Notes under the pieces: model-generated
What the model was told of the DNA's origin: nothing
The model's input: the letters and a program-made list of their open reading frames with translations, nothing else
The model's database searches: none
Assembly: GCA_016183565.1 (NCBI GenBank)
Contig: JACPEJ010000001.1
Coordinates: 614,479-678,478 of the forward strand
Direction of reading: 5' to 3'
Source: Candidatus Blackburnbacteria bacterium
Lineage (GTDB): Bacteria > Patescibacteriota > Microgenomatia > UBA8517 > UBA10165
Length of the DNA: 64,000 bases
Made by a program: the position numbers and the translations under genes
In this document: piece by piece, positions 1 through 54,758 of the stretch
How the letters are laid out: every line of letters begins with the position of its first letter
Numbering within the stretch: position 1 is the first letter of the stretch

Positions 1-292
1 AAACTTTAAGCAACAAAACGAAAACACCTTTGTGGTGTTATTTGTAGTACCTCAAAGTTTTATTAAAGGCTTTCTGGCCTATTCAGATAAAATATTTGCT
101 GAGGTTAAGTTGAATGATCTTACCGAATGATTCTTTTGGTGAAGGTATCCTTCGGCAAGCTCAGGACTATAGCCTTACGAGGGAGCGAATGTTGGCGGAA
201 GATTTTCTGATCCATCTTAGCCACAAGGATCGAAACTTTATCCTCTCCAATTCACCTCAATCAGAAGATTCTCTTTCTGCTATATTGAGCAT

Positions 293-622
293 ATGGCTTG
301 GAAAGTTTTCTTCTTTCATACACCCAGAGGCGAGTATCCTGTCAAGGAGTTTATTGAAAAGCAGGATAGAAACACGGTTGCAAAAATTAACCTTTCGATA
401 AGATTGTTAATAGATTATGGTCCATTTTTAAAACCACCAGACATTAAAAAGTTACAAAATAAATTATATGAACTTCGCATTCAGGGTAAATCGTCAATAA
501 GAATTTTCTATACAATAGTTGCAGGAGAATATTATTTGCTCCATGTTTTTATGAAGAAAAGTCAGAAAACACCCCCCAAAGAATTAAAAGTGGCACTTGA
601 CAGAATGAAGAAAGTAATATAG
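293..622 (+). CDS. Type II toxin, RelE/ParE superfamily (phage Gp49-like / HigB-like), 109 aa
   Basis: Translation MAWKVFFFHTPRGEYPVKEFIEKQ...LYELRIQGKSSIRIFYTIVAGEYYLLHVFMKKSQKTPPKEL matches the Gp49-like toxin pattern (LYELRI...RIFY...LLH.F.KK.QKTP). It lies immediately upstream of an XRE-HTH gene. The overlapping ORF 114..401 is probably spurious or a remnant. Confidence 0.7.
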   Translation: MAWKVFFFHTPRGEYPVKEFIEKQDRNTVAKINLSIRLLIDYGPFLKPPDIKKLQNKLYELRIQGKSSIRIFYTIVAGEYYLLHVFMKKSQKTPPKELKVALDRMKKVI

Positions 623-658
623 CATATGTGCTATAAATATAAAATATAGGAGGGGTAT

Positions 659-940
659 ATGAAAAGACAACATTTAGATTTTGAAGTATGGGAAAAGGAG
701 GCTTTAAAAGATCCTAAACTGAGGGCAGAATATGACAAACTACAGCCACAGTTTGCTATTCTAACAGCAAGGATTGAAAAAAGATTAACTCAAAAAGAGT
801 TAGCCCAAAAGATTGGCACTAAACAATCGGTTATCTCGAGACTTGAGTCTGGCAGAGCTAATCCATCAATTGCTTTCCTTAAAAGATTAGCCCAAGCTTT
901 AAGCTCTCATTTAGAAATTAGATTTACTAATTTTAAATAA
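659..940 (+). CDS. XRE-family helix-turn-helix antitoxin (HigA-like), 93 aa
   Basis: Contains the motif RLTQKELAQKIGTKQSVISRLESG, typical of an XRE/Cro HTH. A strong RBS (aggagg) sits 7 nt upstream of the ATG. The gene lies 36 nt downstream of the toxin gene. Confidence 0.7.
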   Translation: MKRQHLDFEVWEKEALKDPKLRAEYDKLQPQFAILTARIEKRLTQKELAQKIGTKQSVISRLESGRANPSIAFLKRLAQALSSHLEIRFTNFK

Positions 941-1100
941 TTCTATTGTACTTTGCTATGCATCTTTTAAGCCAAAAAGATTGTAAGATATCATCCTGCT
1001 CACACTTCGTAAGGCTTGGTGTAAACTAAACCTGACTTGACTTTAGATGCGAATATTGGCATGATGAAAGTGGCGCAACGTAATATTCTCGGCCTGCCTA

Positions 1101-2080: not shown

Positions 2081-2134
2081 CTCCCGAGGTGCCAAGCTAT
2101 TCCACCTCCCAGGTGGAATACCAGGTGGAATACC
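2081..2134 (+). repeat. REP-like palindromic element, copy a (tandem GGTGGAATACC duplication at the 3' end)
   Basis: Sequence: TCCCGAGGTGCCAAGCTATTCCACCTCCCAGGTGGAATACCAGGTGGAATACC. Confidence 0.8.
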
Positions 2135-2169
2135 AACACTACCTTCTATCTATCGACTTATAGTACTAA

Positions 2170-2181
2170 ATATGGTATAAT
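2170..2181 (+). promoter_or_regulatory. Extended -10 promoter (TGgTATAAT)
   Basis: TGGTATAAT lies ~45 nt upstream of the GTG start at 2227. A GAGGAGAG RBS sits 8 nt before that start. Confidence 0.45.
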
Positions 2182-2226
2182 ACCTCAGCCAAAAATTGGC
2201 TAGCACTTTGAGAGGAGAGCGTGTAA

Positions 2227-2607
2227 GTGAAGCTTACCTGGGACGATCTGTTCAGGAGCGTCAATCTGATTGGTTGCGACATCGAAACTAGGGAAGGTGG
2301 TAGGTTCTACCGCGGCCCGATCAGCACCGTCGTACACACGGGCGGGCACGTACAAATCCAGACAGCTTGGCTTGCGAGCAGGCCAGTAAGAGATGGCTGC
2401 TGGGTCGAAGATCGTTCGCAGGCCGATATATTGTGTGGAGGAGCAACTGACTTCATTCAGGGCCCATTTCTCCAAGAACAGGAGGGCTACATCGGGTTTT
2501 CCCTTCCATACATCGGCTCGGCTAAGATCTACCTGCGTGGACCCAGACTGATCCGGCGGATGGTGCCAGTCTTCGCGCTGGAAACCCGCACAGCAGCTGC
2601 GGCCTGA
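2227..2607 (+). CDS. Hypothetical protein (126 aa, GTG start) in a ~57% GC islet
   Basis: A strong RBS plus promoter upstream and a terminator downstream favour the + strand. The antisense frame is also open (2200..2616), as expected at high GC. No family was recognised. Confidence 0.35.
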   Translation: MKLTWDDLFRSVNLIGCDIETREGGRFYRGPISTVVHTGGHVQIQTAWLASRPVRDGCWVEDRSQADILCGGATDFIQGPFLQEQEGYIGFSLPYIGSAKIYLRGPRLIRRMVPVFALETRTAAAA

Positions 2608-2646
2608 CCCAATCACATCTGAACATCTCTCAAATCCCTGTCCCTG

Positions 2647-2695
2647 AGCCCCAACGGCAACAACAAACCCGTCTGGGGCTCTTTTCTTTTTTTGC
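2647..2695 (+). terminator. Rho-independent terminator
   Basis: Stem AGCCCCA/TGGGGCT with an inner ACGG/CCGT pairing, then CTTTTCTTTTTTT. Confidence 0.55.
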
Positions 2696-2730
2696 TTTGA
2701 AAAACTGGTTCGTGTACAATCTTCTTCTAA

Positions 2731-3435
2731 ATGACAATAGAAAGGCCAAAGTACAAAGAACAGAGAAGCACATTAAATTGGCAACAGGTAGCTCTAATAC
2801 ATGGCCAAGGAATTATGGGGGCTTGTTTGGCAAGAGAACTTACAACCCTGCCTGCCTTAAAAGAGGAACTGTCTTACCTAATCCACAAAACCCCTCTTTC
2901 ATATGAAGAGATAGTTACGTATTACCTCTTTGGCAAAGGTCTTGACTTGCCAACGGTATTAAATAGCCCCTTTGTTCGTTGCTTTGAAACGACTCCCCAA
3001 TGCAAAGAAGACGAACAGCAATTTTTATCAAACCTAAGACATTCTGCAAACAACACTGCTTTGTGGCCAGAACTTACTAAAACTTTTCAAGAATGGGCAG
3101 AAAGAAGGATACCCTACCTTGCCAGAGGACTTAAGCGAAGTATTCTTAGTCATAGGGTTATAGAACCATTGACAGAAGAGGAAGGAAGATGGAAAACAAA
3201 TGAGGGATATAGGTTATGGAGAAAAAATAACCCAGATCAAGTAAGCAAAATACAAAAAGCAGCTTCCCAAAAAGCCGCCGAAGTCGCAAGTGCGCGCGTC
3301 TTTACTCCCCAAGTACGAGATCAAATACAAAAGTGGTTTGATAGAGGGTTAGATTACCAAACAGTAGTAGAACTTTTGAAGGGAATAGGAGTTTATACAA
3401 CTTGCAAAAGCCTCACATACGCTGCGCGAGAGTAA
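2731..3435 (+). CDS. Hypothetical protein (234 aa)
   Basis: Long ORF in a co-directional block. No recognisable motif. Confidence 0.45.
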   Translation: MTIERPKYKEQRSTLNWQQVALIHGQGIMGACLARELTTLPALKEELSYLIHKTPLSYEEIVTYYLFGKGLDLPTVLNSPFVRCFETTPQCKEDEQQFLSNLRHSANNTALWPELTKTFQEWAERRIPYLARGLKRSILSHRVIEPLTEEEGRWKTNEGYRLWRKNNPDQVSKIQKAASQKAAEVASARVFTPQVRDQIQKWFDRGLDYQTVVELLKGIGVYTTCKSLTYAARE

Positions 3436-6901: not shown

Positions 6902-7126
6902 ATGCTTCAAGATGCTGGGCGGGTGATAATAGTCGTAGGAATAGTTCTTATAATACTTGGTAGTCTTTTGTGGTTTTTTGGCAAAATGCCTTTCTTGGGT
7001 AAATTACCCGGGGATATATTTATAAAAAGAGATGGATTTTCTTTTTACGCTCCAATAACTACGACTATTATTATAAGTATATTGTTTTCAATAGTTCTTA
7101 CGATAATCGCTAATCTAAGAAAGTGA
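6902..7126 (+). CDS. DUF2905 small membrane protein
   Basis: LPGDIFIKRDGFSFYAPITTTIIISILFSIVLTII matches the DUF2905 pattern. Confidence 0.55.
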   Translation: MLQDAGRVIIVVGIVLIILGSLLWFFGKMPFLGKLPGDIFIKRDGFSFYAPITTTIIISILFSIVLTIIANLRK

Positions 7127-7890
7127 CCCGCCGCATACTCATTGTATTGCCATGGCTTTTACTTATTATTCTTGGCATTGCTTTTTTAAGCACTCGGCCT
7201 TTTGTAATTCCTAAAGTTCCTCAAACTCCCAATCTACTGTCTTCTGTGTCACAGACACCAACACCAGGAGAAGAAGATCATTTAGTATCGGTAACGCGGG
7301 TGATTGATGGGGATACTGTGGAAATTCAAGGTGGGGAGAGGGTGCGATATATCGGTGTCGACACACCAGAAAGAGATGAGTGTTTTGGACCAGAGGCAAC
7401 GCAGGCGAACAAGGGTCTTGTGGAGGGGAAAAAAGTTCGGCTAGAAAAAGATGTCCAAGAAAAGGATAAGTACGGAAGAATGCTGACGTATGTTTGGATA
7501 GAAGATGTTATGGTGAACGAAAGGTTAGTCCAAGAAGGATATGCGCAAGTTGCCACTTATCCGCCAAATGTGCGTTATCAAGAAAGGTTTGTTAAGGCAC
7601 AGGAGGAGGCAAGAAAGGGAAATAGAGGGTTGTGGGCACCCAACACTTGTTCAGCATCTTCAACGCCTGGAGAAGTTCGAGCGGCCACTCCCGAGGTGGG
7701 TGTTCAAGTAGAAGGAGTCCGAACAGAATGCGAGATTAAGGGTAATATTAACTCAACGGGCGAAAAGATATACCATATGCCTGGGCAGAGGTATTATGAC
7801 AAAACTCAGATTGAGGAAACTCGTGGCGAGCGCTGGTTTTGTTCGGAGGAGGAAGCAGTCCAAGCAGGTTGGAGGAAATCTAAAGTATAG
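7123..7890 (+). CDS. Thermonuclease (SNase-like) family protein with N-terminal TM anchor
   Basis: VIDGDTVEIQGGERVRYIGVDTPE...YGRMLTYVW...LVQEGYA are micrococcal-nuclease catalytic motifs. A C-terminal KGNIN...YH.PG..YYDKT....RWFCSEEEA..AGWR domain follows. Confidence 0.7.
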   Translation: MTRRILIVLPWLLLIILGIAFLSTRPFVIPKVPQTPNLLSSVSQTPTPGEEDHLVSVTRVIDGDTVEIQGGERVRYIGVDTPERDECFGPEATQANKGLVEGKKVRLEKDVQEKDKYGRMLTYVWIEDVMVNERLVQEGYAQVATYPPNVRYQERFVKAQEEARKGNRGLWAPNTCSASSTPGEVRAATPEVGVQVEGVRTECEIKGNINSTGEKIYHMPGQRYYDKTQIEETRGERWFCSEEEAVQAGWRKSKV

Positions 7891-9255: not shown

Positions 9256-9338
9256 GCTTGCACAACAAATCTTCTCGCACTTTCGGAAAAACCATTTCTT
9301 CTAAACCTACTTCAATGGTACAATTTAGAAGTGAGAAT

Positions 9339-10670
9339 ATGGAAAACATCACCACGAGTGTAATTGCTCGTTACAAAAATGCAAAGCATTTTTTGCGATC
9401 GTTTTGGGAGGTCTTGAAAAATGGGTATCCTGCAAGAAAATTAACTGTTATCGGTGTGACCGGTACCGATGGCAAGACTACAACTTCTCATTTAATTTAT
9501 GAAATTCTAAAAGAAGCAGGCTATAAGGCTGGACTCGTTTCAACAGTGGGAGCTTGGGTGGGGGAAGAATACAGAAATACGGGGTTTCACATAACTACGC
9601 CAAACGCTAAGATGCTGCAACCTTTCCTAAAAAGGTTAGTAGAGGATGGGGTAACTCACTTGGTTTTGGAGACTACATCACATGCACTAGATCAGCATAG
9701 GGTATTGGGCTGCAATTTTAAAATTGGAGTTTTGACAAATGTTACCCACGAGCATTTAGATTATCATAAAACAATTGAGAGATATCAAAAGGCAAAGGCA
9801 AAGCTTTTTAAGGGAGTTAAAGTTGCAGTTTTGAACAATGACGATGGTGCTTTTGATTATTTTAAAGGTGTTACAAATCCAAGGGCAAAAATTATGTCAT
9901 ACAGTCTCCAGGGGCAAGCGAGTTTGCGCGCTCGGAACGCCAAAGCAGAAGGGGGAATCACAAGGTTTAGTGTGTTAGAGAGAGACAAAACACACAGTCT
10001 AACTACAACACTTTCCGGAGAATACAATATCTCCAATATTTTAGGGGCGGTCGGTGTAGCTCGAGCCATGAAAGTACGTTGGGCGGAAATTAAGTTAGCA
10101 ATTTCGGGTTTTGAGGGAGTTAGCGGACGAATGGAGGTTATTGCAGACAAGCCTTTTAAGCTAATTGTGGATTTTGCACATACGCCAAATGCTCTTGAGA
10201 GTTTGCTTTCTAGCCTTGCAAGGCCAGGCCTTGTGAGCCTGGGTAGGTTAGGTCGGTTGATTGTGGTTTTTGGGTGCGCTGGGGAGAGGGATATTGCCAA
10301 ACGTCCAATGATGGGAGAGATTTCCACCCGTCTTGCTGATATTTCGATTTTTACGGCCGAAGATCCTCGTTCTGAGGATGTAAATACAATTATTGGACAA
10401 ATAGCGAAGGGTGCTAGAGCAGCAGGAGCTGTTGAGACAGAATCCCGACGTGCAAAGCTATTCCACCTCCCAGGTGGAATAAATAGGTTTATTCGTGAGC
10501 CAGACAGGAGGCAGGCGATAAGATTGGCAGTGAAACTTGCCAAACCGCATGATATTGTTGTTATTTGCGGAAAGGGCCACGAAAAAAGTATGGCGTATGG
10601 AAAAATCGAAAAGCCGTGGTCAGATCAAAAAGAAGCTCGAGAAGCTTTGAATGCAAGGAAACTTAACTAG
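9339..10670 (+). CDS. Mur ligase family protein (MurE-like UDP-MurNAc-tripeptide ligase); ORF open from 9258
   Basis: GVTGTDGKTTTSHL P-loop, a central Mur ligase domain, and a C-terminal GKGHE motif. An in-frame REP-like element lies at 10444-10478. Confidence 0.7.
   Translation: MENITTSVIARYKNAKHFLRSFWEVLKNGYPARKLTVIGVTGTDGKTTTSHLIYEILKEAGYKAGLVSTVGAWVGEEYRNTGFHITTPNAKMLQPFLKRLVEDGVTHLVLETTSHALDQHRVLGCNFKIGVLTNVTHEHLDYHKTIERYQKAKAKLFKGVKVAVLNNDDGAFDYFKGVTNPRAKIMSYSLQGQASLRARNAKAEGGITRFSVLERDKTHSLTTTLSGEYNISNILGAVGVARAMKVRWAEIKLAISGFEGVSGRMEVIADKPFKLIVDFAHTPNALESLLSSLARPGLVSLGRLGRLIVVFGCAGERDIAKRPMMGEISTRLADISIFTAEDPRSEDVNTIIGQIAKGARAAGAVETESRRAKLFHLPGGINRFIREPDRRQAIRLAVKLAKPHDIVVICGKGHEKSMAYGKIEKPWSDQKEAREALNARKLN
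10444..10478 (+). repeat. REP-like palindromic element, copy b (inside the murE-like CDS, in frame)
   Basis: CCCGACGTGCAAAGCTATTCCACCTCCCAGGTGGAAT, translated as SRRAKLFHLPGGI. Confidence 0.8.
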
Positions 10671-13638: not shown

Positions 13639-13716
13639 TGGTGGACGGTAGAGGACTCGAACCTCTGAAACCTTCCGCACGTCAAGCGGACGCTCTACCA
13701 ACTGAGCTAACCGTCC
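13639..13716 (-). tRNA. tRNA-Val (anticodon GAC), 78 nt with CCA
   Basis: Reverse complement GGACGGT-TA-GCTCAGTTGGTAGAGC-G-TCCGC-TTGACGT-GCGGA-AGGTT-AGAGGTTCGAGTCCTCT-ACCGTCC-ACCA. Confidence 0.8.
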
Positions 13717-15214: not shown

Positions 15215-15250
15215 ATCCTGATCTACTTGTACTACCTGTACTACTTGTGC
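15215..15250 (+). repeat. 9-bp tandem repeat (CTACTTGTA-CTACCTGTA-CTACTTGTG-CTAC) directly after a stop codon
   Basis: The same repeat family, in the same orientation relative to the upstream gene, recurs at 63121-63165. Confidence 0.6.
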
Positions 15251-15263
15251 TACTTTAAAGTGT

Positions 15264-15542
15264 ATGGAGCCAGTAGATAGGGTGCATAGACCATTGGGAA
15301 AGATGCTTCTGCATAATTTCTTGGGGGGTATTGCTTGGGCTTTAGGAGTTACTGTTGGTTTGTCAATTGTTTTGGGAATTTTGGGATACTTGGTTTCTAA
15401 GGTAGATTTTGTTCCAGTAATTGGCGATTTTGTTAAGAAAATTACAGAATCTGTCATTGAGCAACCTAAGCCTGAGATCCGGATACCATCTAAAGCTGCC
15501 GCACCAACTCTAATCCCTACTCAACAAATTCCTGAAGAGTAG
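15264..15542 (+). CDS. Hypothetical small membrane protein
   Basis: ORF with one or two TM helices. Confidence 0.35.
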   Translation: MEPVDRVHRPLGKMLLHNFLGGIAWALGVTVGLSIVLGILGYLVSKVDFVPVIGDFVKKITESVIEQPKPEIRIPSKAAAPTLIPTQQIPEE

Positions 15543-15560
15543 CCAGCGCCAACACATTAA

Positions 15561-15633
15561 CCCCGACGTGCAAACGTGTTCCACCGAGTCAAACTCGGTA
15601 GGCAAGTCTGACTTGCCACTTCCCAGGTGGAAT
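15561..15633 (+). repeat. REP-like element, copy c, with a 33-nt insertion carrying two extra hairpins
   Basis: CCCCGACGTGCAAACGTGTTCCACC[GAGTCAAACTCGGTAGGCAAGTCTGACTTGCCA]CTTCCCAGGTGGAA. Confidence 0.7.
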
Positions 15634-24405: not shown

Positions 24406-25590
24406 ATGGATATCAACAACTTGCTTTCTCGAAACATAGCAGAAATTCTACCAACTAAGGAAGAGTTTCGAAAAAGACTTGATGCTGGCCCCATCAAAAT
24501 TTATTTAGGGATTGATCCTTCGGCAAATCAAATACACATTGGCAATGCAGTTGTTTTGTGGAAACTACGAGATTTTCAAGATGCGGGCCACAAGGTAATT
24601 CTTTTGATCGGAGACTTCACTGGAATGATTGGAGACCCTACGGACAAATCTGCTACTCGAAAAAAGTTAACCCGAGAAGATGTATTGGAAAATGCAAAAA
24701 CATACAAGGAGCAGGTTTCAAAAATTTTAAGTTTTGAGGGAGAAAATCCAGCAGAGTTTACTTTTAACAGTGAATGGTTGGCGAAGTTAAGTTTTTCAGA
24801 TGTTGTTGAGTTGGCTTCATTTGTTACAGTTCAACAGATGTTGGAACGGGACTTTTTCCAGGTGAGAATTAAAGAAAATAAACCGATTCATTTGCATGAA
24901 TTTTTATATCCATTGATGCAAGGTTATGATTCAGTCGCAATGGGTGTTGATGCAGAAATCGGTGGTACTGACCAGACATTTAATATGTTGGTTGGAAGGA
25001 CTTTAATTAAAGCGATTAAGAACAAAGATAAGTTTGTGGTTACAGTTCCACTTCTTGAGGGGTTGGATGGAAGAAAAATGAGTAAGTCTTTTGGGAACTA
25101 CATTGGTCTAACAGATACACCTGAAGATATGTTTGGTAAAGTAATGAGTCTGTGTGATGATCTTCTTTCTAAATATTTTGAGTTGGCAACAAGATTGACT
25201 GACGAGGAAGTACAGAAGACAAAGGACGCGCTTCAATCAAATGAATTGCATCCAATGGAGGCTAAGAAGCGATTGGCTTGGGAGATTGTTGCTCTTTATC
25301 ATAGTAAAGAAGAAGCAGATGGGGCACAAAAGGAATTTGAGGAAGTTTTCCAAAAAGGTGGGGTTCCGGAAGATGTAAGAGCATACAATGCAAAGGATAA
25401 AATGATTGATCTTGTAGAAGTTCTTGTCGAGACACAACTGGTAACCAGCAAATCTGAGGCACGTCGACTTGTTGAACAAGGTGGTCTGGAGTGGAATGGA
25501 GAAAAAGTAACCAGTCCTCAGATTGCAGTAGAAACAGACGGAATGCTCAGAGTAGGCAAACACCGTTTTCTTAAAATTGAAGCAACATAG
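24406..25590 (+). CDS. tyrS: Tyrosine--tRNA ligase
   Basis: HIGN (HIGH) motif, KMSKS motif, and a C-terminal S4 domain. Confidence 0.9.
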   Translation: MDINNLLSRNIAEILPTKEEFRKRLDAGPIKIYLGIDPSANQIHIGNAVVLWKLRDFQDAGHKVILLIGDFTGMIGDPTDKSATRKKLTREDVLENAKTYKEQVSKILSFEGENPAEFTFNSEWLAKLSFSDVVELASFVTVQQMLERDFFQVRIKENKPIHLHEFLYPLMQGYDSVAMGVDAEIGGTDQTFNMLVGRTLIKAIKNKDKFVVTVPLLEGLDGRKMSKSFGNYIGLTDTPEDMFGKVMSLCDDLLSKYFELATRLTDEEVQKTKDALQSNELHPMEAKKRLAWEIVALYHSKEEADGAQKEFEEVFQKGGVPEDVRAYNAKDKMIDLVEVLVETQLVTSKSEARRLVEQGGLEWNGEKVTSPQIAVETDGMLRVGKHRFLKIEAT

Positions 25591-25600
25591 TAACCTTAGA

Positions 25601-25638
25601 CCCGATGTGCAAAGCTATTCCACTCCCGATGTGGAATG
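25601..25638 (+). repeat. REP-like element, copy d
   Basis: CCCGATGTGCAAAGCTATTCCACTCCCGATGTGGAATGG. Confidence 0.8.
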
Positions 25639-25798: not shown

Positions 25799-27865
25799 AT
25801 GAAGCTTGCTGATCCGGTGGATACTATCCCTTTTGTTGGGCCAGGTTATGCATGGAGATTGAAAAAGCTTGGTGTAAATACTGTTAAGGATCTTTTGTAT
25901 CATATTCCAAATCGCTATCAAGATTTCTCTTTGCTTTCAAATATAAGTACGCTTCAGCCCGGAGAGGAAGTTACAATCCAGGGACAAATACTTTCAATTG
26001 AGAACATTTATACAAGGAAAAGAATAGTTATACAGCGGGCGCAAGTTTCGGATGGAGAAGGAGTTATTGAAGCAACATGGTTTAACCAACCTTTTTTGGT
26101 TAAAAATTTACCTCCTGGGACAATGGTTTCTTTGTCGGGGAAGGTTAAGGCTTCTGGTTCTCGTAGATCTCTTGTTTCGCCGGAGTATGAGAAACTACGA
26201 ACTACTAACTACGCCTTTCCGAAGGAAACATCTTTACTACGAACTGGTGACACTGTTCATACGGGTCGTTTGGTACCTATCTATCCTGAGACTGAGGGTC
26301 TTTCATCAAAGTGGTTGCGCTCAAAAATATCACATACTCTGCCTAGGGTCATTGAGGAAATATCTGAATATCTTCCGGAGGAACTTTTGGCAAGGTTTAA
26401 ACTAATTAGTCTTCAGGATGCTATTAAGAAAGTCCATTACCCAAAGAGTTTAGAAGAAGCTTTGGAGGGAAGGAGAAGATTGGCATTTGACGAGCTTTTG
26501 GAATACCAGTTAAAAAGTTTGATTCGTAAAAACGAATGGAAAGAAAAAAAGCTTTCGCATAAACTTTTGGTAAATCAAGAAAAAATGCTCCAGTTTATAA
26601 ACAGTTTGCCTTTTAATTTAACAGATTCACAGAGAAGATCTGGCCGAGAAATTTTAAGGGATTTAAAAAAGAGCCAACCTATGAACAGGTTATTGGAAGG
26701 AGATGTGGGTTCTGGAAAAACTGTTGTTGCAGCACTTGCTTGTTACATGGCGGTTCAAAACGGATTTCAGGCAACGTTTATGGCTCCAACACAGATTCTT
26801 GCTTCGCAGCATTACGTCACGTTGAATAGTATACTTGGACCTCTTGGTGTGAGTGTAGGGTTGGTTACTGGAGGGAGGCGAAAAGCGAAAAGCGAAAAGC
26901 GAAAAAAAATTGACGTGTTAGTCGGAACTCATGCTCTCGTCCAGAAAAGTGTCACGTTTGAAAACCTCGGATTAGTCGTAATTGACGAGCAACACAGATT
27001 TGGGGTAGCCCAACGAGCCATCCTCACACAAAAGGGCAGTGGTGGATTTTCTCCTCATGTTCTTACAATGACCGCAACCCCAATTCCCAGAACTGTTGCT
27101 TTAACTATTTATGGCGACCTTGATCTTTCAACTCTTGATGAGCTGCCAAAAGGCAGATTAAACATAAAAACGTGGGTTGTTCCACCTCAAAAAAGAGAAG
27201 GTGCTTACGATTGGATCAGAAAGCACGTTAAAGACACTGATGAACAGGCTTTTATAGTTTGTCCACTTATTGAAGAGTCAGAAAAGGAAACCATGAAGGC
27301 AGTTAGGGCAGCAACTGCTGAGTTTGAAATGTTATCTAGGAAAGTTTTTCCGGACCTGCGTTTGGGTCTCCTTCACGGCAAGGTGGGACTTTCGGAAAAG
27401 GATGAGATTATGAGAAAGATGCAAGGGGGAGAGATAGATATTCTTGTTGCAACACCGGTTGTGGAGGTTGGAATTGATATTTCAAATGCGACTATTATGA
27501 TGATTGAGGCAGCAGAAAGGTTTGGTCTTGCACAACTTCATCAATTGCGAGGGAGGGTGGGTCGTGGTGCAAAACAATCTTATTGCCTTCTTTTTTCCGG
27601 ATCATCTTCACCTCAAGTTGTGATGCGTCTTAAGTCACTTGAAAAAACTATGTCAGGACGAGAACTGGCGGAGATTGACTTGAAGATGCGGGGGATGGGG
27701 GAACTTTATGGGACTTTACAGCATGGTTTTCCGGAGTTGAAAATTGCATCTTTTATGGATACTGAACTTATAAAGGCTACTCGTTTCGCTGCCGAGTGGC
27801 TCGTTGAACAGAAGGCAGACCTTTCAAGATTCCTTTCAGGCTCTGAGATCGTGGTGCCCAATTAG
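25799..27865 (+). CDS. recG: ATP-dependent DNA helicase RecG
   Basis: Wedge domain; helicase motifs GDVGSGKT and DEQHRFGV; C-terminal QLRGRVGRG. Contains a (GCGAAAA)4 repeat at 26881-26908. Confidence 0.9.
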   Translation: MKLADPVDTIPFVGPGYAWRLKKLGVNTVKDLLYHIPNRYQDFSLLSNISTLQPGEEVTIQGQILSIENIYTRKRIVIQRAQVSDGEGVIEATWFNQPFLVKNLPPGTMVSLSGKVKASGSRRSLVSPEYEKLRTTNYAFPKETSLLRTGDTVHTGRLVPIYPETEGLSSKWLRSKISHTLPRVIEEISEYLPEELLARFKLISLQDAIKKVHYPKSLEEALEGRRRLAFDELLEYQLKSLIRKNEWKEKKLSHKLLVNQEKMLQFINSLPFNLTDSQRRSGREILRDLKKSQPMNRLLEGDVGSGKTVVAALACYMAVQNGFQATFMAPTQILASQHYVTLNSILGPLGVSVGLVTGGRRKAKSEKRKKIDVLVGTHALVQKSVTFENLGLVVIDEQHRFGVAQRAILTQKGSGGFSPHVLTMTATPIPRTVALTIYGDLDLSTLDELPKGRLNIKTWVVPPQKREGAYDWIRKHVKDTDEQAFIVCPLIEESEKETMKAVRAATAEFEMLSRKVFPDLRLGLLHGKVGLSEKDEIMRKMQGGEIDILVATPVVEVGIDISNATIMMIEAAERFGLAQLHQLRGRVGRGAKQSYCLLFSGSSSPQVVMRLKSLEKTMSGRELAEIDLKMRGMGELYGTLQHGFPELKIASFMDTELIKATRFAAEWLVEQKADLSRFLSGSEIVVPN
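26881..26908. repeat. Heptanucleotide tandem repeat (GCGAAAA) x4 inside the recG CDS
   Basis: gcgaaaagcgaaaagcgaaaagcgaaaa encodes RKAKSEKRK. Confidence 0.85.
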
Positions 27866-27915: not shown

Positions 27916-27948
27916 AAGCCAGGTTCTTATTCCACCTCCCGAGTGGAA
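27916..27948 (+). repeat. REP-like element, copy e (divergent 5' half)
   Basis: GAAGCCAGGTTCTTATTCCACCTCCCGAGTGGAA. Confidence 0.65.
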
Positions 27949-28002
27949 ACATATATCTTCTCAAATTTGACTTCTGTGTTTTTACTATATAGAATACTGC
28001 AA

Positions 28003-35492: not shown

Positions 35493-35984
35493 TCAATTCC
35501 TCAACAACACCCTCGTCCTTAAATTTAAGGACGATCGTTCCTCGACCCGGAGAGAAGAACCGGTTTTTTCTGAGAGTGTCATATTTATAAGAACTGCCTT
35601 GGGGTCATTTGAGGGATCACATGTTATGGAGCAGGAGGAAACCAAAACATCACTTGATGTTAACGTATCGCTTCCTGAAGTCACCCGACCATTATTGGTT
35701 CCAATGTCTATACAAGAGAAGGTGGTTGTGGTACCGAGAGGGTTTTTGTAGGTAACAATCTTTTCTGTAGCTTCACAGGAAATAGAGCGAGCATTGTGTA
35801 GTTGTCTCTCCATTGTTGAGATAACGTTTTCTCCATCTCTTTTTACTTTTGCAGTAACTTCACTTTTAGAGGCGCCCTTAAGAGCCGAGAACAGCATTTG
35901 GTTTGCAACCACTAGCACAATACCAAAGATTGTGATTACGACAAGGATTTCTATGAGGGTGAAGCCGTACTTTTTCGTTATCAT
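35493..35984 (-). CDS. Type IV pilin / pseudopilin (prepilin-type N-terminal cleavage/methylation domain)
   Basis: KKYGFTLIEILVVITIFGIV. Confidence 0.7.
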   Translation of the reverse strand: MITKKYGFTLIEILVVITIFGIVLVVANQMLFSALKGASKSEVTAKVKRDGENVISTMERQLHNARSISCEATEKIVTYKNPLGTTTTFSCIDIGTNNGRVTSGSDTLTSSDVLVSSCSITCDPSNDPKAVLINMTLSEKTGSSLRVEERSSLNLRTRVLLRN

Positions 35985-36409
35985 TTTTTCCAGTTAGTTA
36001 AGATCGTAGAAGTTCTTGATTCGTGTGTTCCGCGGCTGTCAGTCCACCCTACTTTTACATCAATCTGCACAGTATCATTGTCAATCCTGGTAAGGGTTGC
36101 TTCGCGTATAAAGGTATCTGCAATTTTGGAGGATTGGGGACAGTTGCCGCTAATGTTTAGAGTTAGAGTTTGCATGCATCGTACCGAACCATCTGCTTTT
36201 GAATAAATATTGTCCCAACCGCCATCTCTTTGCTGCCTGATCCATTCAACTGCTTCTTGACTGTACTTGTTTGCTTGGGCTTCACTTTGCGAAAAGCTAC
36301 TATTGCGGACAGAGAACGTTACGATGCTTACAATTCCTGTTATCAAAAGAGCAAGAACTCCTATGACAACTACCATTTCAATCAAAGTTTGACCGTGCTC
36401 TTTCTTCAT
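35981..36409 (-). CDS. Type IV pilin-like protein
   Basis: HGQTLIEMVVVIGVLALL prepilin N-terminus. Confidence 0.65.
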   Translation of the reverse strand: MKKEHGQTLIEMVVVIGVLALLITGIVSIVTFSVRNSSFSQSEAQANKYSQEAVEWIRQQRDGGWDNIYSKADGSVRCMQTLTLNISGNCPQSSKIADTFIREATLTRIDNDTVQIDVKVGWTDSRGTHESRTSTILTNWKK

Positions 36410-36879
36410 TGTCTTTCTAAAACTCCTTCCTTGCTTAAGGTAGCACTTATGGATCGACCAGAAGATGGCTGGTTAAGTTGAATAGTTAGGTTGCCGGAGA
36501 GATCAGTCCCTTGGGCTAAAACTTTAAAGAGAACCGTGGTTGGAGATGCAGAAAGAGTAATTCCTCCCGGTAAGGTAAATGTTCTGTTTGCAGACTGGAC
36601 AGTTCCCTGACAAACTGCGGCAACTGATAAATTGCCTGAATTCAGAGTAACCCTGTACCCATCAAGTGTATTTGTTCCACAACTTGTTGGCTTTTCGCCA
36701 GAAAGTGCAAATTGGCGGGCAAGGTTTAAATTTGAACGGAGTTCTTTGTATGAATTTTCCAAGGTTTGTCGTCTTGAAAACTCACGATAGCTTGCATAGC
36801 CACCAAAAAATAGAATGGTGGCGATCATAATGGCGATGAGGACCTCGATTAGGGTAAACCCCCTGTGTTTCCATTTCAT
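36406..36879 (-). CDS. Type IV pilin-like protein (ORF open to 36918)
   Basis: HRGFTLIEVLIAIMIA. Confidence 0.7.
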   Translation of the reverse strand: MKWKHRGFTLIEVLIAIMIATILFFGGYASYREFSRRQTLENSYKELRSNLNLARQFALSGEKPTSCGTNTLDGYRVTLNSGNLSVAAVCQGTVQSANRTFTLPGGITLSASPTTVLFKVLAQGTDLSGNLTIQLNQPSSGRSISATLSKEGVLERQ

Positions 36880-37334
36880 GGATTCGTTACTTTGTAGTTG
36901 CAGGTGGAAGTACCGCAATTTTCATTACTCCCATTGCAGTTAACAGTGCCAGATCCTTTTTCCAAATAAGCACAAAGATTGTAGGTTTTTTGGTCACCTG
37001 AGGCGTAGTATTGATATTGATACGAACCACCAGTTAATGGGTCAGCAGGAATAGATGAGAGATAGGTATTTGAGCTTGAACATGTAGATGGTGAACCATC
37101 CCCTACCAGTGGTTGCCCTGCTACAACGGCGCTTCTTGCTGGATAATCTCCGCAGTCGGTTCTGTAGATTTCTAACGCCGAGCGAATTTGTTCTAGGTCT
37201 CCTCTTCTTCTTGCATCTCGCCCCGATTTCCTAACAGAGCTATAAGCAACAGCAGAAAGCCCTATCAAGATACCTATAATAGTGATAACTACAAGAATTT
37301 CGATGAAGGTGAAACCACTTTTTTTCTTTATCAT
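36876..37334 (-). CDS. Type IV pilin (GspG/PilE-like)
   Basis: KKSGFTFIEILVVITIIGIL, then RDARRRGDLEQIRSALEIYRTDCGDYP. Confidence 0.75.
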   Translation of the reverse strand: MIKKKSGFTFIEILVVITIIGILIGLSAVAYSSVRKSGRDARRRGDLEQIRSALEIYRTDCGDYPARSAVVAGQPLVGDGSPSTCSSSNTYLSSIPADPLTGGSYQYQYYASGDQKTYNLCAYLEKGSGTVNCNGSNENCGTSTCNYKVTNP

Positions 37335-37795
37335 ATTGGGCAGCTCCCTCCTGAGACCGAAAAGCCTGTTTGCGATTTTTCACCAGATTTGCCATTAGAA
37401 CACATGACCCAGTAATTAGTCTTTGACTGGAGTTTTGCCCACAGAACCCAGCTTAAACCATTAGCATCCGATTGGTAGCTGTATTGATATGTATTGTCCT
37501 CAGTATATTTTTTATCCTCTAAGCACCCTGACATGTAAGACTCGAGTGGCCCACTGCCACTACACAGAGTATATGCTTTCACTGTTGTCGCTCTGACAGG
37601 GTAGAGTGAGCTGTTCTCTGCTGAATAATTCTCAAGTGCTACTTGATATTGCTTGATATCATTTTTGCGATTTGTGTCATTGCCTTTTTTAATTTGGGCA
37701 ACCGGATCAAATACAGAAATAAGCGTTGCTACTAGAATGCCAATAATTGTTATAACGATTAGGATTTCTACTAGGGTAAAGCCACGTTTATTCAT
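37331..37795 (-). CDS. Type IV pilin-like protein
   Basis: NKRGFTLVEILIVITIIGIL. Confidence 0.7.
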   Translation of the reverse strand: MNKRGFTLVEILIVITIIGILVATLISVFDPVAQIKKGNDTNRKNDIKQYQVALENYSAENSSLYPVRATTVKAYTLCSGSGPLESYMSGCLEDKKYTEDNTYQYSYQSDANGLSWVLWAKLQSKTNYWVMCSNGKSGEKSQTGFSVSGGSCPI

Positions 37796-38198
37796 CCAGC
37801 TTTCCTCCTACTTCCAGATTAGCACTTGTTAAGCCGTAATTACAAGCTACGCCACAATCGCTATCTAGGCCTAAAACAACTTCGGGGTCTTTCTTGTTCT
37901 CAAGTTTTGCGAAAAGTTGATATTTTGAACCATCTTTTGAAGAGCGGTAAGAATACTTGAGTTGGTGGACGGGGTCACTGGGCATTTTTTCTATCACCCC
38001 GGGATATTTGCCATGGGTAGAATGATAGATTTCAAGTTCTTTTTGAATTTGCGAGAGGTCACTCTTGCGTTTTTCGTCTCGGGTTTTGGCTTGGAGCTCT
38101 CGAATATAACTGAGAGCAAAAAAACTAACAATTCCCATCACAAGAAGTACGAGAAGTATTGGTGGATTTGAGTTTGCACCCTGGGATACCTTTTTCAT
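37788..38198 (-). CDS. Pilin-like protein (atypical N-terminus)
   Basis: A hydrophobic N-terminus followed by a GspG-like K/R...DL..I...LE.Y segment. Confidence 0.45.
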   Translation of the reverse strand: MKKVSQGANSNPPILLVLLVMGIVSFFALSYIRELQAKTRDEKRKSDLSQIQKELEIYHSTHGKYPGVIEKMPSDPVHQLKYSYRSSKDGSKYQLFAKLENKKDPEVVLGLDSDCGVACNYGLTSANLEVGGKLDE

Positions 38199-38785
38199 TT
38201 TGCACTATTTGCACTATCGGTGGATTCAGACGCTTGGGTTTTGCGCATAAGGACGACATCTTTTTCGATTGCCTCAAGTTCTTTCTCGACAGGAGTGTCG
38301 CCACTAGCCACACCAAAGTTGCATATTTGAGAACCGCAAGCAAGTTTTCGGCGTGCTACTCCTTCTTTATACTCATCGTCTTTTGAATTTTCCAGATGAG
38401 CAAAAAGTTGAAAGTTTTTCCCATCAGTAACATATAGATAGGAATACTTCTTTCCAGGTGCCAACGGGTCCTCGGGTATTCTATCTATATAAGGAGGATA
38501 GCTTGAATCAGTAATATCTCTTATTCCATCCTTTCCCCACTCGCACGGGCTTGGTTTTTCTATCTCCCCGCAAGCAAAAATTTTTCCATCGCGTGCTGGA
38601 GGATATGAGGCAAAATCATTTAAATACATATTTAAGGCAGTGGCTATATGTTTAAGGTCGTTTTTGCGTTGTACGTCCCGCGCTCGGACTAACGAGGTGC
38701 GGAAATTAAAAAGTGCCAAGCCCCAGATTATTGTGAGGATTAGACCAACCATGAGGATTTCGTTTTTGGTAAAACCCTGTTGCAT
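38195..38785 (-). CDS. Type IV pilin-like protein
   Basis: QQGFTKNEILMVGLILTII, then RARDVQRKNDLKHIATALNMY. Confidence 0.6.
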   Translation of the reverse strand: MQQGFTKNEILMVGLILTIIWGLALFNFRTSLVRARDVQRKNDLKHIATALNMYLNDFASYPPARDGKIFACGEIEKPSPCEWGKDGIRDITDSSYPPYIDRIPEDPLAPGKKYSYLYVTDGKNFQLFAHLENSKDDEYKEGVARRKLACGSQICNFGVASGDTPVEKELEAIEKDVVLMRKTQASESTDSANSAK

Positions 38786-38941
38786 GAGTTTAAAAAATTT
38801 TCAATTTTCAATTCTTAATTTTTATTCAATTTTTAATGACTAAATGTTTACTAATTAGGTTTTAATCTAATTGAGTATGTTAAATTTAAAATTAGATTAT
38901 TTGGATTTGATTAAAAATTTAAAATTTAAAATTCATTTCCT

Positions 38942-39733
38942 TCAGAGGAAATGGTTATACCACCCTACTATCCTATCACTAAAAAATAAACTAATCCAAG
39001 CGCCAAGCAGTAGGAATGGGCCAAAGGCGATGTGTTTTTTCCAAGAGGCTTTGTTTGCTGCTATTAAAAAAAGTCCAACAACTGCTCCTATGGAAAAAGA
39101 AAGCAGAAACCAAATCAGGACTCTCGGGTATCCTAGGAGAGAACCTAAAACGAATGAAAGTTTGACATCACCAAATCCCATCCCACGACCTCTTGTTAAT
39201 ACAAAAATACCCAGGAAGAAACTAAAAGAAATAAGACCCCAAGATATGTGATTGATAAGAGTGGGGGGGGGAGCAAGAAATAAAAACAAAAGTACTGTAA
39301 GACCTAATACTAGAACTAAAATATCAGGCAAAATTTCAAATTCAAAGTCTATTACTATTAGACTTATAAAGATTGCAATAATCATTAGTAAGGCAGGGAG
39401 TGCCGCAAAACCAAGTGTGGTTTTAAAAAGGCTTAAGGATGAATTATTCGTTGAGAAGAATAGGAAGGTTGAGATAACAAATGCTATGCTTGTCAAAGTT
39501 TCGATTACAGGATAACGCAAGCCAATTTTTTTTCCACAGGAAGCGCATTTCCCTCGGAGCAAGATAAAAGAAACAACCGGTATGTTATTAAACCAGCGGA
39601 TTTTTTTGTGACAGTGGTCGCAGACTGACCTTCCGAATATGGAGATTCCACGAGGGATACGGTGGGTGAGCATCCCGATGAAGGAGCCGAGGGCTAGTCC
39701 AAGAAGAGCGAGAATGAGATAGAAAAATGGCAT
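38942..39733 (-). CDS. pilD: Prepilin peptidase (A24 family)
   Basis: An N-terminal Cys-rich zinc-binding segment (CDHC...CASCGKKI), then polytopic TM helices with a GFGDVKL catalytic region. Confidence 0.85.
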   Translation of the reverse strand: MPFFYLILALLGLALGSFIGMLTHRIPRGISIFGRSVCDHCHKKIRWFNNIPVVSFILLRGKCASCGKKIGLRYPVIETLTSIAFVISTFLFFSTNNSSLSLFKTTLGFAALPALLMIIAIFISLIVIDFEFEILPDILVLVLGLTVLLFLFLAPPPTLINHISWGLISFSFFLGIFVLTRGRGMGFGDVKLSFVLGSLLGYPRVLIWFLLSFSIGAVVGLFLIAANKASWKKHIAFGPFLLLGAWISLFFSDRIVGWYNHFL

Positions 39734-39758
39734 GTTGAGAGTAATTTCAAATTAAAAA

Positions 39759-40355: not shown

Positions 40356-40409
40356 ACTCTTAAATAGCTTAAAGAAGAAACCTTATAAAAAGCAAGTAGG
40401 AGAATGTTG

Positions 40410-43212: not shown

Positions 43213-43213
43213 A

Positions 43214-45013: not shown

Positions 45014-45118
45014 ACATCCATATTGATATAATTTTTGGTAAAATGCAAGGAAAGCAAGTAACGTCAGACTTTGTTGCTGATGTCACTCTGGGTTACTGGT
45101 GTTACTGATATTACTCCT

Positions 45119-45796
45119 ATGCATGCTTTTTTGATTGTTGGCAAAACAGAAAAAGAACGACAGGGTGCGGTTGTGGAAATTCTTAAACAGAATAAGGTGG
45201 GGGAGACTTTGAGTCTAACTTCTGACAAAGAGGTATATTCTATCTCGAGTGTTCGTAATTTAAATAAAACCCTGCGGCTAAAGACTTTGGACGAAACCAC
45301 AAGAGCGGTTGTTGTGAAAAATGCTCATAGATTGACAACTGAGGCAGCTAATGCTTTTCTTAAAACTTTAGAAGAGCCTACAGCTCATACAATTCTTATT
45401 TTAACCGCACCTAATCAAGATTCTCTACTTCCTACAATAGTCTCACGTTGTCAGGTGGAAAATTTAGGCAATAGTGCTCCCACTTCGGGCAAGAAGGAGG
45501 AGTTGGAAAAACTTGTGAATTCTTCTATCGGAGAAAGACTTATTGTGGCTGAAAAATTTGATGATCGGGAGATGGCTTTAGAGTTTGTAGTAGAACAAAC
45601 GTTTGCTGCACGAGATGTGATGATAAGTTCGGTAAAAACAGATGGGGCTTCAGCTAACACGGCTTCCTGTCTAAAACTACTTAAAGATCTAAAACAGGCT
45701 AAGGATGATTTAGAATCCAATGTTAATGTAAAGTTGGTTCTTGTGAATCTGCTTCTCCAATATCCTATATTCCATTCCACTCCCGATGTGGAATAG
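45119..45796 (+). CDS. holB: DNA polymerase III delta' subunit (short)
   Basis: NAHRLTTEAANAFLKTLEEPTAHTILILTAPNQDSLLPTIVSRCQ. The C-terminal 8 codons are encoded by REP copy f. Confidence 0.65.
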   Translation: MHAFLIVGKTEKERQGAVVEILKQNKVGETLSLTSDKEVYSISSVRNLNKTLRLKTLDETTRAVVVKNAHRLTTEAANAFLKTLEEPTAHTILILTAPNQDSLLPTIVSRCQVENLGNSAPTSGKKEELEKLVNSSIGERLIVAEKFDDREMALEFVVEQTFAARDVMISSVKTDGASANTASCLKLLKDLKQAKDDLESNVNVKLVLVNLLLQYPIFHSTPDVE

Positions 45797-45810
45797 GTTG
45801 ACACGTCGGG
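45768..45810 (-). repeat. REP-like element, copy f (inverted orientation), 5' of the RAYT gene
   Basis: The reverse complement reads CCCGACGTGTCAACCTATTCCACATCGGGAGTGGAATGG. Confidence 0.75.
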
Positions 45811-45837
45811 AGGATTGTTGTAGTGTAATGTTAGTAC

Positions 45838-46512
45838 ATGCCTACTCGGATAATACCTCTCGTAAACGGTGAGTTTTACCATCTTTTTAATCGAGGTGTG
45901 GCGCATCAACCAATTTTTTCTACTAACAGGGATTACCAAAAGTTTTTACTCCCTCTACAATACTATCAGTTACAAACACCACCTGTTAAGCTGTCTCGAT
46001 TTATGCAATTACAAAAGGATGAAAAGGAATACTTACTCAAAGAACTCGAGACGAAGGGAAAGAAATTAGTAAATCTTATCTGCTTTGTTCTAATGCCAAA
46101 TCACTTCCATGCTCTTGCACAACAATCAGTTAACAATGGTATTTCTACTTTTATAAAGAGAGCTACTGATAGCTATGCCCGTTATTTCAACACCAAACAT
46201 GAACGTGTTGGTCCTTTGTTTCAGGGAGCATTTAAGGCGGTAAGAATTACAACGGTTGAGCAATTACTTCATGTGTCAAGATATATACACCTGAATCCAC
46301 TGGTTTCTTTTGTTGTGCGTCAAGAAAACTTCATCCAATATCAGTGGTCATCGCTCCAATACTTCTTACAAGAAAACATTTCTCAGAATATAGTTGACCC
46401 TACTCCTATACTCCAAAATTTCAGTTCTAAGGAAGAATATAAGAAGTTTATATTAGACCACGCTGAATACGCAAAGGAGTTGGAGAAAATTAAGCACATG
46501 GTGATTGATTAA
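45838..46512 (+). mobile_element. REP-associated tyrosine transposase (RAYT; IS200/IS605-like Y1 HUH transposase)
   Basis: YHLFNRGV ... LMPNHFHAL (HUH motif) ... SRYIHLNPL (catalytic Tyr). The gene is flanked on both sides by REP-like elements in opposite orientation. Confidence 0.75.
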
Positions 46513-46513
46513 T

Positions 46514-46549
46514 ACCGATGTGCAAAGCTATTCCACTCCCGATGTGGAA
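46514..46549 (+). repeat. REP-like element, copy g, immediately 3' of the RAYT stop
   Basis: ACCGATGTGCAAAGCTATTCCACTCCCGATGTGGAA. Confidence 0.8.
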
Positions 46550-46676
46550 AGTTTGTGGAAAGTTGCTTTGGGGGCCAGGTTTTTAACCTTCGCTAAGTTT
46601 GCAAAGACTCGCATATCAAGCTATAATTATAGTTAGGAAATGGGGTTTTAAAAGCCCTATTTTTCGTGTTTAGACA

Positions 46677-54600: not shown

Positions 54601-54671
54601 TCCCGAGGTGCCAACCCCAGTAGTACAACATTGTTGACTACGGGGCAGGCGTATTCCACCTCCCAGGTGGA
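54601..54671 (+). repeat. REP-like element, copy h, with a 35-nt inserted hairpin
   Basis: TCCCGAGGTGCCAA[CCCCAGTAGTACAACATTGTTGACTACGGGGCAGGC]GTATTCCACCTCCCAGGTGGAAT. Confidence 0.7.
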
Positions 54672-54758
54672 ATTTAGTGCATCTTACTATTCGGAGTAGT
54701 TTGATTAGAATGAGTGCCTTGGGTTAGCGTTCGCTCAACCATATACGCAGCAGGAGTA

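Follow-up and report, generated by a model that had tools for sequence, protein, structure and literature searches.

An in-frame REP element within the murE gene of a Candidatus Blackburnbacteria genome and its association with a RAYT-type transposase gene

Repetitive extragenic palindromic elements (REPs), the REPINs and their REP-associated tyrosine transposases (RAYTs) are established as systems which persist vertically over long periods (PMC3116915, PMC5581495). REPs of the GTAG/CGTC family have been reported within open reading frames (ORFs), including uvrA and uvrB (Di Nocera et al. 2013, PMC3733652), and palindromic repeats inserted in frame into genes are established for the Rickettsia palindromic elements (RPEs), as far as the work of Ogata et al. 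2000 is recounted in PMC10969869 and PMC3733652. For Patescibacteria, or the candidate phyla radiation (CPR), no paper on REP/RAYT was found in the library that we searched. Here we describe a REP copy lying in frame within murE, the gene for UDP-MurNAc-tripeptide synthetase, in a metagenome-assembled genome (MAG) of Candidatus Blackburnbacteria. The analysis covered one 64-kb stretch of this genome (64,000 nucleotides of contig JACPEJ010000001.1, hereafter the window), and the closest relative in the databases searched shares 61% amino acid identity.

The murE copy is 39 nt long and has the sequence TCCCGACGTGCAAAGCTATTCCACCTCCCAGGTGGAATA. An initial annotation, made from the sequence alone, had placed a REP at 10444-10478; the copy is indeed present, but its true limits (10443-10481) start one base further left and make it three bases longer. 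It begins at codon position 1 of ORF 9258-10670 and encodes SRRAKLFHLPGGI, which is exactly 13 codons and corresponds to residues 369-381 of the 443-amino-acid (aa) protein. The frame stays open beyond it and ICGKGHEKS follows in frame, so that the annotation was right in describing an insert of a multiple of three with the GKGHE motif in frame downstream. The copy matches the extragenic copy at 2082-2120 at 37 of 39 positions, with two mismatches, and a mismatch search of the window returned this one (2082-2116/2120) as its sole other near-identical copy. Both are of the form 'arm plus hairpin' ending at GGAATA, and the murE copy has no 3' arm. When the window was shuffled 100 times with dinucleotides preserved, no match to the murE REP at three or fewer mismatches appeared, and with an nhmmer profile of 46 elements, drawn from other genomes and the window, it scores E=1.1e-13. 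Folded as single-stranded DNA it forms a stem of 10 bp closed by a 3-nt loop, at -8.4 kcal/mol (z=-3.9). Neither at its junctions nor at those of other copies was a direct duplication of a target site observed. We regard it as nearly certain that this is a true REP, in frame, within murE.

The family has at least eight copies in the 64 kb (Table 1). A repeat finder groups the murE copy with those at 2082, 25600, 46513 and 54636, and more loosely with those at 15559/15612, 27928 and 45773. A full copy consists of a 5' arm, TCCCGAxGTGyMAAGC, and a hairpin formed by TATTCCAC, a 7-nt C-rich loop and GTGGAATA. The conserved 5' flank is (A/G)GC-TA-TTCCAC; GTAG is absent, and CGTC occurs only where the variable base of the arm is C. 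Six of the eight window copies are extragenic, the exceptions being that in murE and one at the 3' end of holB (DNA polymerase III delta', PF13177), where REP sequence supplies the last seven or so codons (..STPDVE) as well as the TAG stop (45794-45796). This copy, at 45774, has its loop flipped relative to its own arm. Four of the six extragenic copies begin 1-17 nt past a stop codon in the sense orientation, and that at 54601-54673 sits between convergent genes. The sequences 5' of the window copies share no visible conserved target motif.

The REPs at 45774-45811 and 46513-46551 bracket a gene for a Y1/HUH tyrosine transposase, whose product is matched by Pfam Y1_Tnp (PF01797) with 32.6 bits against a cut-off of 23. 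The top NCBIfam match is REP_Tyr_transpos (NF047646), with 46.8 bits, which lies under the cut-off of 80. H89 and H91 of the HUH motif and the tyrosine Y149 are invariant across 12 homologues. On searching the PDB with a profile of the family, the best match was 4er8 (TnpArep, the E. coli RAYT bound to a REP) with E=2.9e-5, and the IS200/IS605 TnpA structures ranked behind it. A phmmer search of the PDB with the single sequence returned no match, 4er8 being reached by the profile alone. Since a RAYT gene lies in the window and is flanked by REPs, the label 'REP-like' given in the initial annotation holds in the strict sense. It was also observed that the deposited NCBI protein for this gene (P0121) has 169 aa, 75% of the 224-aa ORF, and that the window encodes a conserved N-terminus, MPxRxxPLVNGExYHxFNRG; the deposited start is probably too far downstream.

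The association of repeat and transposase gene recurs in many other genomes of Patescibacteria (CPR). In two fetched loci (L029 and L057) two REP copies bracket an ORF of 219-223 aa with HUH and Tyr motifs, and in a third (L072) a pair of copies is found next to a homologous ORF of 215 aa. Using tblastn, RAYT homologues were found to adjoin the repeat in 16 fetched loci, in addition to the window (45838-46512). The subfamily is represented by 6315 metagenome clusters at E<=1e-10, and NCBI annotates such genes only as 'transposase' or 'hypothetical protein'. Scanning one genome of each GTDB species with a degenerate hairpin pattern yielded 88 loci, 80 of them listed, where roughly a dozen are expected by chance (our own estimate from the information content of the pattern, made with no tool). 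These loci belong mostly to Microgenomates and other Patescibacteria and have the same 5' arm, often with a 3' arm that is its reverse complement; the window's own genome is not among the 80 listed of the 88.

Complete arm-hairpin-arm elements are present in three relatives (L060, L073 and L095), with folding energies of -13.5 to -15.5 kcal/mol, whereas the window copies are mostly halves. The 5' arm (CCCGAx/GTG) and the loop with the 3' half-stem (CCCGAx/GTGGAA) are direct repeats which co-vary between genomes: in the window and loci L001-L088 they are identical in 20 of 44 cases, where 7.4 would be expected. Several genomes also have split variants, in which a further G+C-rich hairpin separates the arm from the REP hairpin. 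Judged by its sequences, the family is a REP/RAYT system in the strict sense, with a divergent RAYT subfamily.

Other identities were considered for the repeat and rejected. A scan of the whole window at Rfam gathering thresholds identified one tRNA only, and Rfam has no family for the repeat. A structured RNA or riboswitch, with variable hairpins between conserved halves, was dropped in view of the RAYT linkage and of co-varying parts that are direct and not complementary repeats. A promoter or operator (TTCCAC-N7-GTGGAA upstream of -10-like boxes) does not agree with copies that follow stops, one of them between convergent genes, or with a conserved loop. An intrinsic terminator would be expected to have a T-run, which is absent, and the terminator scan gave no flag. 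The spacing is too irregular for a CRISPR or tandem array, and a MITE, a miniature inverted-repeat transposable element, was rejected for want of a target-site duplication. Two further observations concern the neighbourhood of the family. A hairpin resembling an intrinsic terminator, with a T-run, lies at 2003-2035, about 45 nt upstream of the REP at 2082. In an SNase-like ORF (7123-7890), a 15-mer (CCACTCCCGAGGTGG, 7685-7699) in a variable linker resembles the REP hairpin (nhmmer E=0.25), and the window protein is about seven residues longer there (RAATPEV) than four orthologues; this may be a decayed intragenic REP.

Table 1. Positions of murE, the RAYT gene and the REP copies of the window, and of in-frame REPs in genes of other loci
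Feature	Position or locus	Strand	Remarks
murE (UDP-MurNAc-tripeptide synthetase), intact	9339..10670	+	start per NCBI MBI2268439.1; open frame from 9258
murE REP copy	10443..10481	+	5' arm TCCCGACGTGCAAAGC 10443-10458; hairpin TATTCCACCT-CCC-AGGTGGAATA 10459-10481
Extragenic REP	2082..2132	+	37/39 identical to murE copy; extra tandem unit CCAGGTGGAATA after
Composite extragenic REP	15559..15633	+	small extra palindromes between 5' arm and hairpin; 17 nt past stop of ORF 15264-15542
Extragenic REP	25600..25638	+	10 nt past stop of ORF 24406-25590
REP hairpin alone	27928..27949	+	downstream of ORF 25799-27865
REP upstream of RAYT gene	45774..45811	+	hairpin and inverted (3') arm GGTTGACACGTCGGGA; overlaps 3' end of holB (45071-45796)
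RAYT gene (Y1/HUH tyrosine transposase)	45838..46512	+	224 aa; HUH motif MPNHFH; catalytic-Tyr motif RYIHLNP
REP downstream of RAYT gene	46513..46551	+	starts at first base past RAYT stop codon
Composite extragenic REP	54601..54673	+	5' arm, G+C-rich extra hairpin, REP hairpin; 10 nt past stop of ORF 50674-54591
In-frame REP	L012		AsnB (asparagine synthase) linker
In-frame REP	L059		LepA, past G domain
In-frame REP	L038		UvrB
In-frame REP	L025		Cu-oxidase_4 protein
In-frame REP	L064		NAD-epimerase
In-frame REP	L008		PMT-family glycosyltransferase
In-frame REP	L060 (gene 2109-3149)	+	DRG-like GTPase

The host gene is intact. The murE ORF scores 396 bits with TIGR01085 (cut-off 257) and 386 with NF001126 (cut-off 373), the middle and C-terminal Mur ligase domains (PF08245 and PF02875) were found in its product, and the window MurE retains each of the 68 columns found invariant across 35 orthologues. 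The identical protein, MBI2268439.1 of the Candidatus Blackburnbacteria MAG, whose contig is 686 kb long, is on record in NCBI and Logan on 3 contigs. An AlphaFold (AF2) model computed from the 35 orthologues has a mean predicted local distance difference test score (pLDDT) of 90.6 and a predicted template modelling score (pTM) of 0.90; it has the three-domain MurE fold and superimposes on the solved structures 8g6p, 2wtz, 4c13 and 1e8c with template modelling (TM) scores of 0.81-0.84. The insertion appears to be tolerated, which is one of the two alternatives given in the initial annotation, and we think it very probable that the window MurE is functional. It has EDPR (window about 10350-10365), which is invariant in all 35 aligned CPR orthologues, in place of the canonical DNPR of MurE enzymes that add meso-diaminopimelic acid (meso-DAP). 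The Thermotoga MurE, which has a DDPR motif, adds lysine. Going by this motif, substrate specificity may differ from that of the meso-DAP-adding enzymes.

The inserted residues 369-381 lie about 25 residues past the substrate-binding EDPR motif and form the least confident block of the whole model, with a mean pLDDT of 63. They are modelled as a short helix and coil between the helix at 348-361 and the strand at 383-386. In sequence alignments two solved bacterial MurE proteins, 2wtz and 8f5d, are gapped opposite the REP peptide. The length of this loop varies in the orthologues from none to about 27 residues, being short or absent in L096, L097, L100, L102, P0032, P0060 and P0095. These findings bear out the placement of the insert in a loop, which would be surface-exposed and away from the active site. 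In two distant orthologues the loop is filled by microsatellite-like coding repeats, and it was observed that these are TCTAATTGG repeated three times, read as SNWSNWSN, in L098 and CATATCA repeated four times, read as HITYHISHITYH, in L099. The loop site is generally permissive.

The murE loop is not alone in accommodating the repeat. The fetched loci and the window together contain 99 hairpin matches, of which 26 are situated inside open frames of at least 150 codons; at least eight could be placed by Pfam inside bona fide genes, and about 10 of the 99 are in frame within real genes (examples in Table 1). In these Patescibacteria-like MAGs the intragenic REPs lie mostly between Pfam domains and are mostly read as F-H-x-x-G-G. 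Intragenic REPs in frame had been called rare in the initial annotation; this cannot be upheld for the present family, in which a second window copy also ends holB, and intragenic copies are a regular minority of it. In one contig (L092) the REP of murE is identical at 48 of 51 positions to a REP in a DRG-like GTPase gene (1-1086, minus strand), so that these two unrelated proteins have the peptide KQV(A/S)YLDHLEGGTDSPP in common. L060 belongs to the genome that has the REP-free murE P0032; its orthologous GTPase contains a complete element, in frame and at the corresponding site, of the variant peculiar to that genome. In both GTPases (MMR_HSR1 and MMR_HSR1_Xtn domains) the REP was seen just past the NKVD (G4) motif, and that of L092 has a second HLEGG segment (GCCACCTTGAAGGTGGAAGC) and a 15-aa insert past the G2 region.

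In seven murE orthologues of Blackburnbacteria-like genomes, including that of the window, this loop is occupied by REP-like DNA, which is read in one shared frame. In the closest relative (L089, protein P0002, 61% identity and syntenic) the site reads gaa/TCCCAAGGTGCAAACCTATCCCACCTCTCAGGTGAAAT with a 3' arm, the slash marking the junction, and the segment gaa/TCCCAAGGTGCAAACCTATCCCACCTCTCAGGTGAAATCCTACCTACACCTCGGGAA is a decayed REP with its 3' arm. In L095 (P0005), gaa/ACCCTAGGTGCCAACCTAGTCCACTCCCGAAGTGGAT with a 3' arm is a near-intact full element following the same GAA (nhmmer E=5e-8). Recognisable hairpins, partly with arms, occupy the same frame in L090, L092, L094 and L178, the loop being flipped in L092 and L178. 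The nhmmer E-values of the six relatives are 5e-8, 4.5e-5, 0.006, 0.015 and 0.018, and 0.21 for the weakest, L092. A His codon, CAC, falls on the 5' half-stem in all of them, and the left junction GAA/TCCC or GAA/ACCC is common to the window, L089 and L095. In a neighbour-joining tree of MurE computed without the loop columns, the REP-bearers fall into two monophyletic groups, one comprising the window, P0002 and P0005, the other P0004, P0006, P0012 and P0015. The loops of P0008, P0009 and P0007 are of similar length and have no REP signal, and in P0032 and L096 the insert is absent. A further 80 murE loci from metagenomes, more distant and amounting to 710 kb, have no REP in the loop, and no more than two weak REP matches were found anywhere in them.

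The initial annotation had proposed that an alignment of orthologues be checked for an insertion of about 12 residues mapping to the REP. At the distance available (closest relative 61% identical) the window protein is no longer there than most orthologues; the alignment of 35 sequences shows no net gain of 12-13 aa, since inserts of similar length are present in close relatives. It had also been anticipated that orthologues with the same segment would point to a coincidental likeness. Such orthologues exist, and their loops are themselves REP-derived; the similarity is not coincidental, and the insertion is either ancient or recurrent rather than a private recent event.

Identity at third codon positions between the window murE and these relatives is 0.32-0.40, and synonymous sites are taken to be essentially saturated between these genes. 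The REP segment of the window murE is nevertheless identical to that of L089 at 32 of 39 positions, and more similar still to its own extragenic copy. Neutral shared ancestry cannot account for the similarity of the REP segment. The loop peptide itself differs between relatives (SRRAKLFHLPGGI, SQGANLSHLSGEI, TLGANLVHSRSGS).

Based on these observations we favour the following explanation, which we consider moderately probable as a whole: a RAYT-linked REP entered the loop long ago and has since been homogenised with the REPs of the genome. The family would be mobilised or maintained by the putative activity of its RAYT (gene at 45838-46512). A REP with 5' arm, hairpin and probably 3' arm would, in an ancestral member of a Blackburnbacteria-like subclade, have entered the hypervariable loop of MurE domain 3, between the helix after the EDPR (DNPR-equivalent) motif and the strand leading toward the PDR motif. 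Being free of stops and keeping the frame, the insert could have survived as extra loop residues of a working enzyme. The intragenic copy would still be a member of the REP population of its genome, with gene conversion or RAYT-mediated replacement maintaining the similarity, and there would have been later decay in some lineages and loss in others. That the murE copy is pristine, with a perfect 10-bp stem, 37 of 39 identities and the truncation type of its own genome, in a gene so saturated, suggests that it still belongs to this population. We infer that the insertion took place once and long ago, that the copies were homogenised, that the 13 residues are neutral and that the RAYT is active; for an ancient insertion followed by homogenisation, as opposed to a recent re-insertion, the chances appear a little better than even. 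A further possibility, which we offer as a tentative one, is that intragenic REPs are vertically fixed and yet continually overwritten, so that the loop peptide changes with the REP variant of the genome.

Several observations weigh against the explanation that we favour. The comparison for presence or absence of the element, and with it the dating of this copy, is an indirect one, since the relatives in the databases searched come no closer than 61% aa identity. The loop orientation is flipped in L092 and L178, and P0008, P0009, P0007 and P0032 are without REP-like DNA; orientation and REP-free members together fit independent insertions about as well as decay and hairpin inversion. Inversion of the hairpin loop in place is a plausible source of the flips, as may be compared with the flipped loop at 45774. 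The window copy is without the 3' arm that L089 and L095 have. Moreover, the hairpin is strongly conserved across many Patescibacteria, and some of the similarity between lineages could be due to a general constraint on REPs and not to conversion.

The strongest competitor is that the window copy is young and arose by recent independent insertion, the murE loop being a hot spot hit repeatedly in different lineages, one that the protein tolerates and that may also offer a preferred target. It would be in keeping with the identity of 37/39 to an extragenic copy, with the genome-specific arm-plus-hairpin form ending GGAATA as at 2082, with an orientation that varies between relatives and with REP-free members of the clade. 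The loop takes other junk, such as microsatellite expansions, and the same family lies in frame within many other genes. Against this, the left junction is identical in the three closest lineages, and one frame is used in all seven REP-bearing orthologues. The element is open in each of its three forward frames, so that a filter against stop codons does not impose a single frame. In addition, neither a conserved target motif 5' of the window copies nor an older remnant beside the intact copy is seen. We consider such a recent origin rather unlikely.

It is improbable that the REP has been co-opted, its peptide or its mRNA or DNA hairpin serving MurE or its expression through mRNA processing, translational pausing or protein contact. 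A hairpin kept intact in a coding region over long times, at least in the window and L095, would speak for such a role, as would the position of other REPs 1-17 nt past stop codons in sense orientation, which fits a role at the RNA level. The peptide, however, is not conserved among relatives, L089 has a decayed hairpin, P0032 and L096 have no loop, elsewhere the loop is filled by unrelated repeats, and the same element is present in unrelated proteins.

The initial annotation had raised as an alternative that murE is subtly inactivated, as a pseudogene or a dispensable copy backed by another ligase. The insertion lies about 25 residues past the EDPR motif, and the inspection for a second murE was confined to the 64-kb window. 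This alternative does not sit well with a frame open throughout, 68 of 68 invariant columns kept, scores that exceed curated equivalog and subfamily cut-offs, a confident MurE-like model and relatives whose murE genes are intact with REPs at the same site, and we give it very little weight. An assembly artefact, in the form of a repeat-induced chimera or a collapsed repeat in the MAG, seems to us slightly less credible again. Short repeats do break or mis-join metagenome assemblies, and many RAYT homologues are on very short contigs; here murE is collinear across the two flanks, in a single frame and with conserved motifs to the left and right of the insert, the identical protein is found on 3 contigs in NCBI and Logan, and independent genomes have the same arrangement. 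Coincidence, whereby the loop peptide would merely be REP-like at the DNA level, is already refuted by 37 of 39 identical nucleotides including synonymous positions, by the shuffles (0/100) and by the profile score.

A few other features of the window were noted. On the minus strand, 35493-40901 is a cluster of small genes sharing a 55-nt repeat (35912, 37262, 37729 and 40820) that encodes a prepilin-type N-terminus (..GFTLIEILVVITI..); it adjoins larger genes at 40949-45013 and is probably a type IV pilus or pseudopilin locus. A perfect 7-nt tandem repeat (AGGTTGT x7.3) occupies 63475-63525, and a 9-nt repeat (CTACTTGTA / AGGTAGTAC) occurs at 15223-15255 and, far apart and in inverted orientation, at 63125-63163. 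The minus strand also has a tRNA gene, at 13642-13716.

In the window murE, selfish DNA is translated within an essential enzyme of a very small genome, a genome type that is generally regarded as streamlined. The case also offers a handle on REP/RAYT biology outside Proteobacteria, the system being abundant in Patescibacteria. If the similarity of intragenic copies to the REPs of their own genome holds, orthologous intragenic REPs would be natural markers for the rates of REP conversion or replacement, and repeat dynamics could drive the turnover of protein loops. Should the overwriting be real, it would represent a previously undescribed route, in which a domesticated transposase-repeat system rewrites surface loops of housekeeping proteins, among them MurE, a DRG-like GTPase, LepA and UvrB. 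On the practical side, such inserts can mislead gene callers, alignment trimming and marker-gene phylogenetics of CPR bacteria, and the REP copies probably add to the fragmentation of assemblies.

Compared with the proteobacterial REP/REPIN-RAYT systems (E. coli TnpA-REP, 4er8; Pseudomonas REPINs), the present family is likewise a short, multi-copy palindrome, mostly extragenic near the 3' ends of genes, with a Y1/HUH transposase gene flanked by repeats and an apparently long vertical persistence. The full elements of relatives, with two inverted arms and a long hairpin, may be likened to the proteobacterial REPINs. The host, in contrast, is a CPR/Patescibacteria genome of about 0.7 Mb. There is no GTAG 5' of the stem, the conserved flank being ..AAGC-TA, and the window copies are mostly arm-plus-hairpin halves. 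The element is modular in architecture, and between genomes the 5' arm and the loop with 3' half-stem co-vary as direct repeats. The RAYT, of about 222-224 aa, scores below the REP_Tyr_transpos cut-off, and a sizeable share of the copies is intragenic.

The intragenic REPs of the GTAG/CGTC family (PMC3733652) also lie wholly within known ORFs, those of DNA-repair genes included; they add residues to the protein and are read as neutral inserts in linkers or loops. They belong to another family and host group, whereas here orthologues that are deeply diverged have one and the same site occupied, and the intragenic copy resembles the REP variant of its own genome, for which no such description was found in the literature searched.

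MITEs such as ERIC, Correia/NEMIS and those of Anabaena (PMC10969869) are, like the present repeats, small and non-autonomous and are occasionally translated within host proteins. They have terminal inverted repeats and target-site duplications and depend on DDE transposases, whereas no duplication flanks the murE junctions and the enzyme here is of the Y1/HUH type.

RPEs, insofar as the accounts cited above describe them, are palindromic selfish repeats which a reduced genome carries in frame within many housekeeping genes unrelated to one another, with proteins that are presumably functional, and the same can be said of the present family. In those accounts they measure about 100-150 bp, encode a conserved peptide of 30-50 aa and mostly have no established RAYT, while the element described here has 39-60 nt and is RAYT-associated. 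By analogy the present family would work like an RPE; the likeness is one of behaviour, a relationship by sequence is not to be expected, and the likeness does not by itself make it a member of the RPEs.

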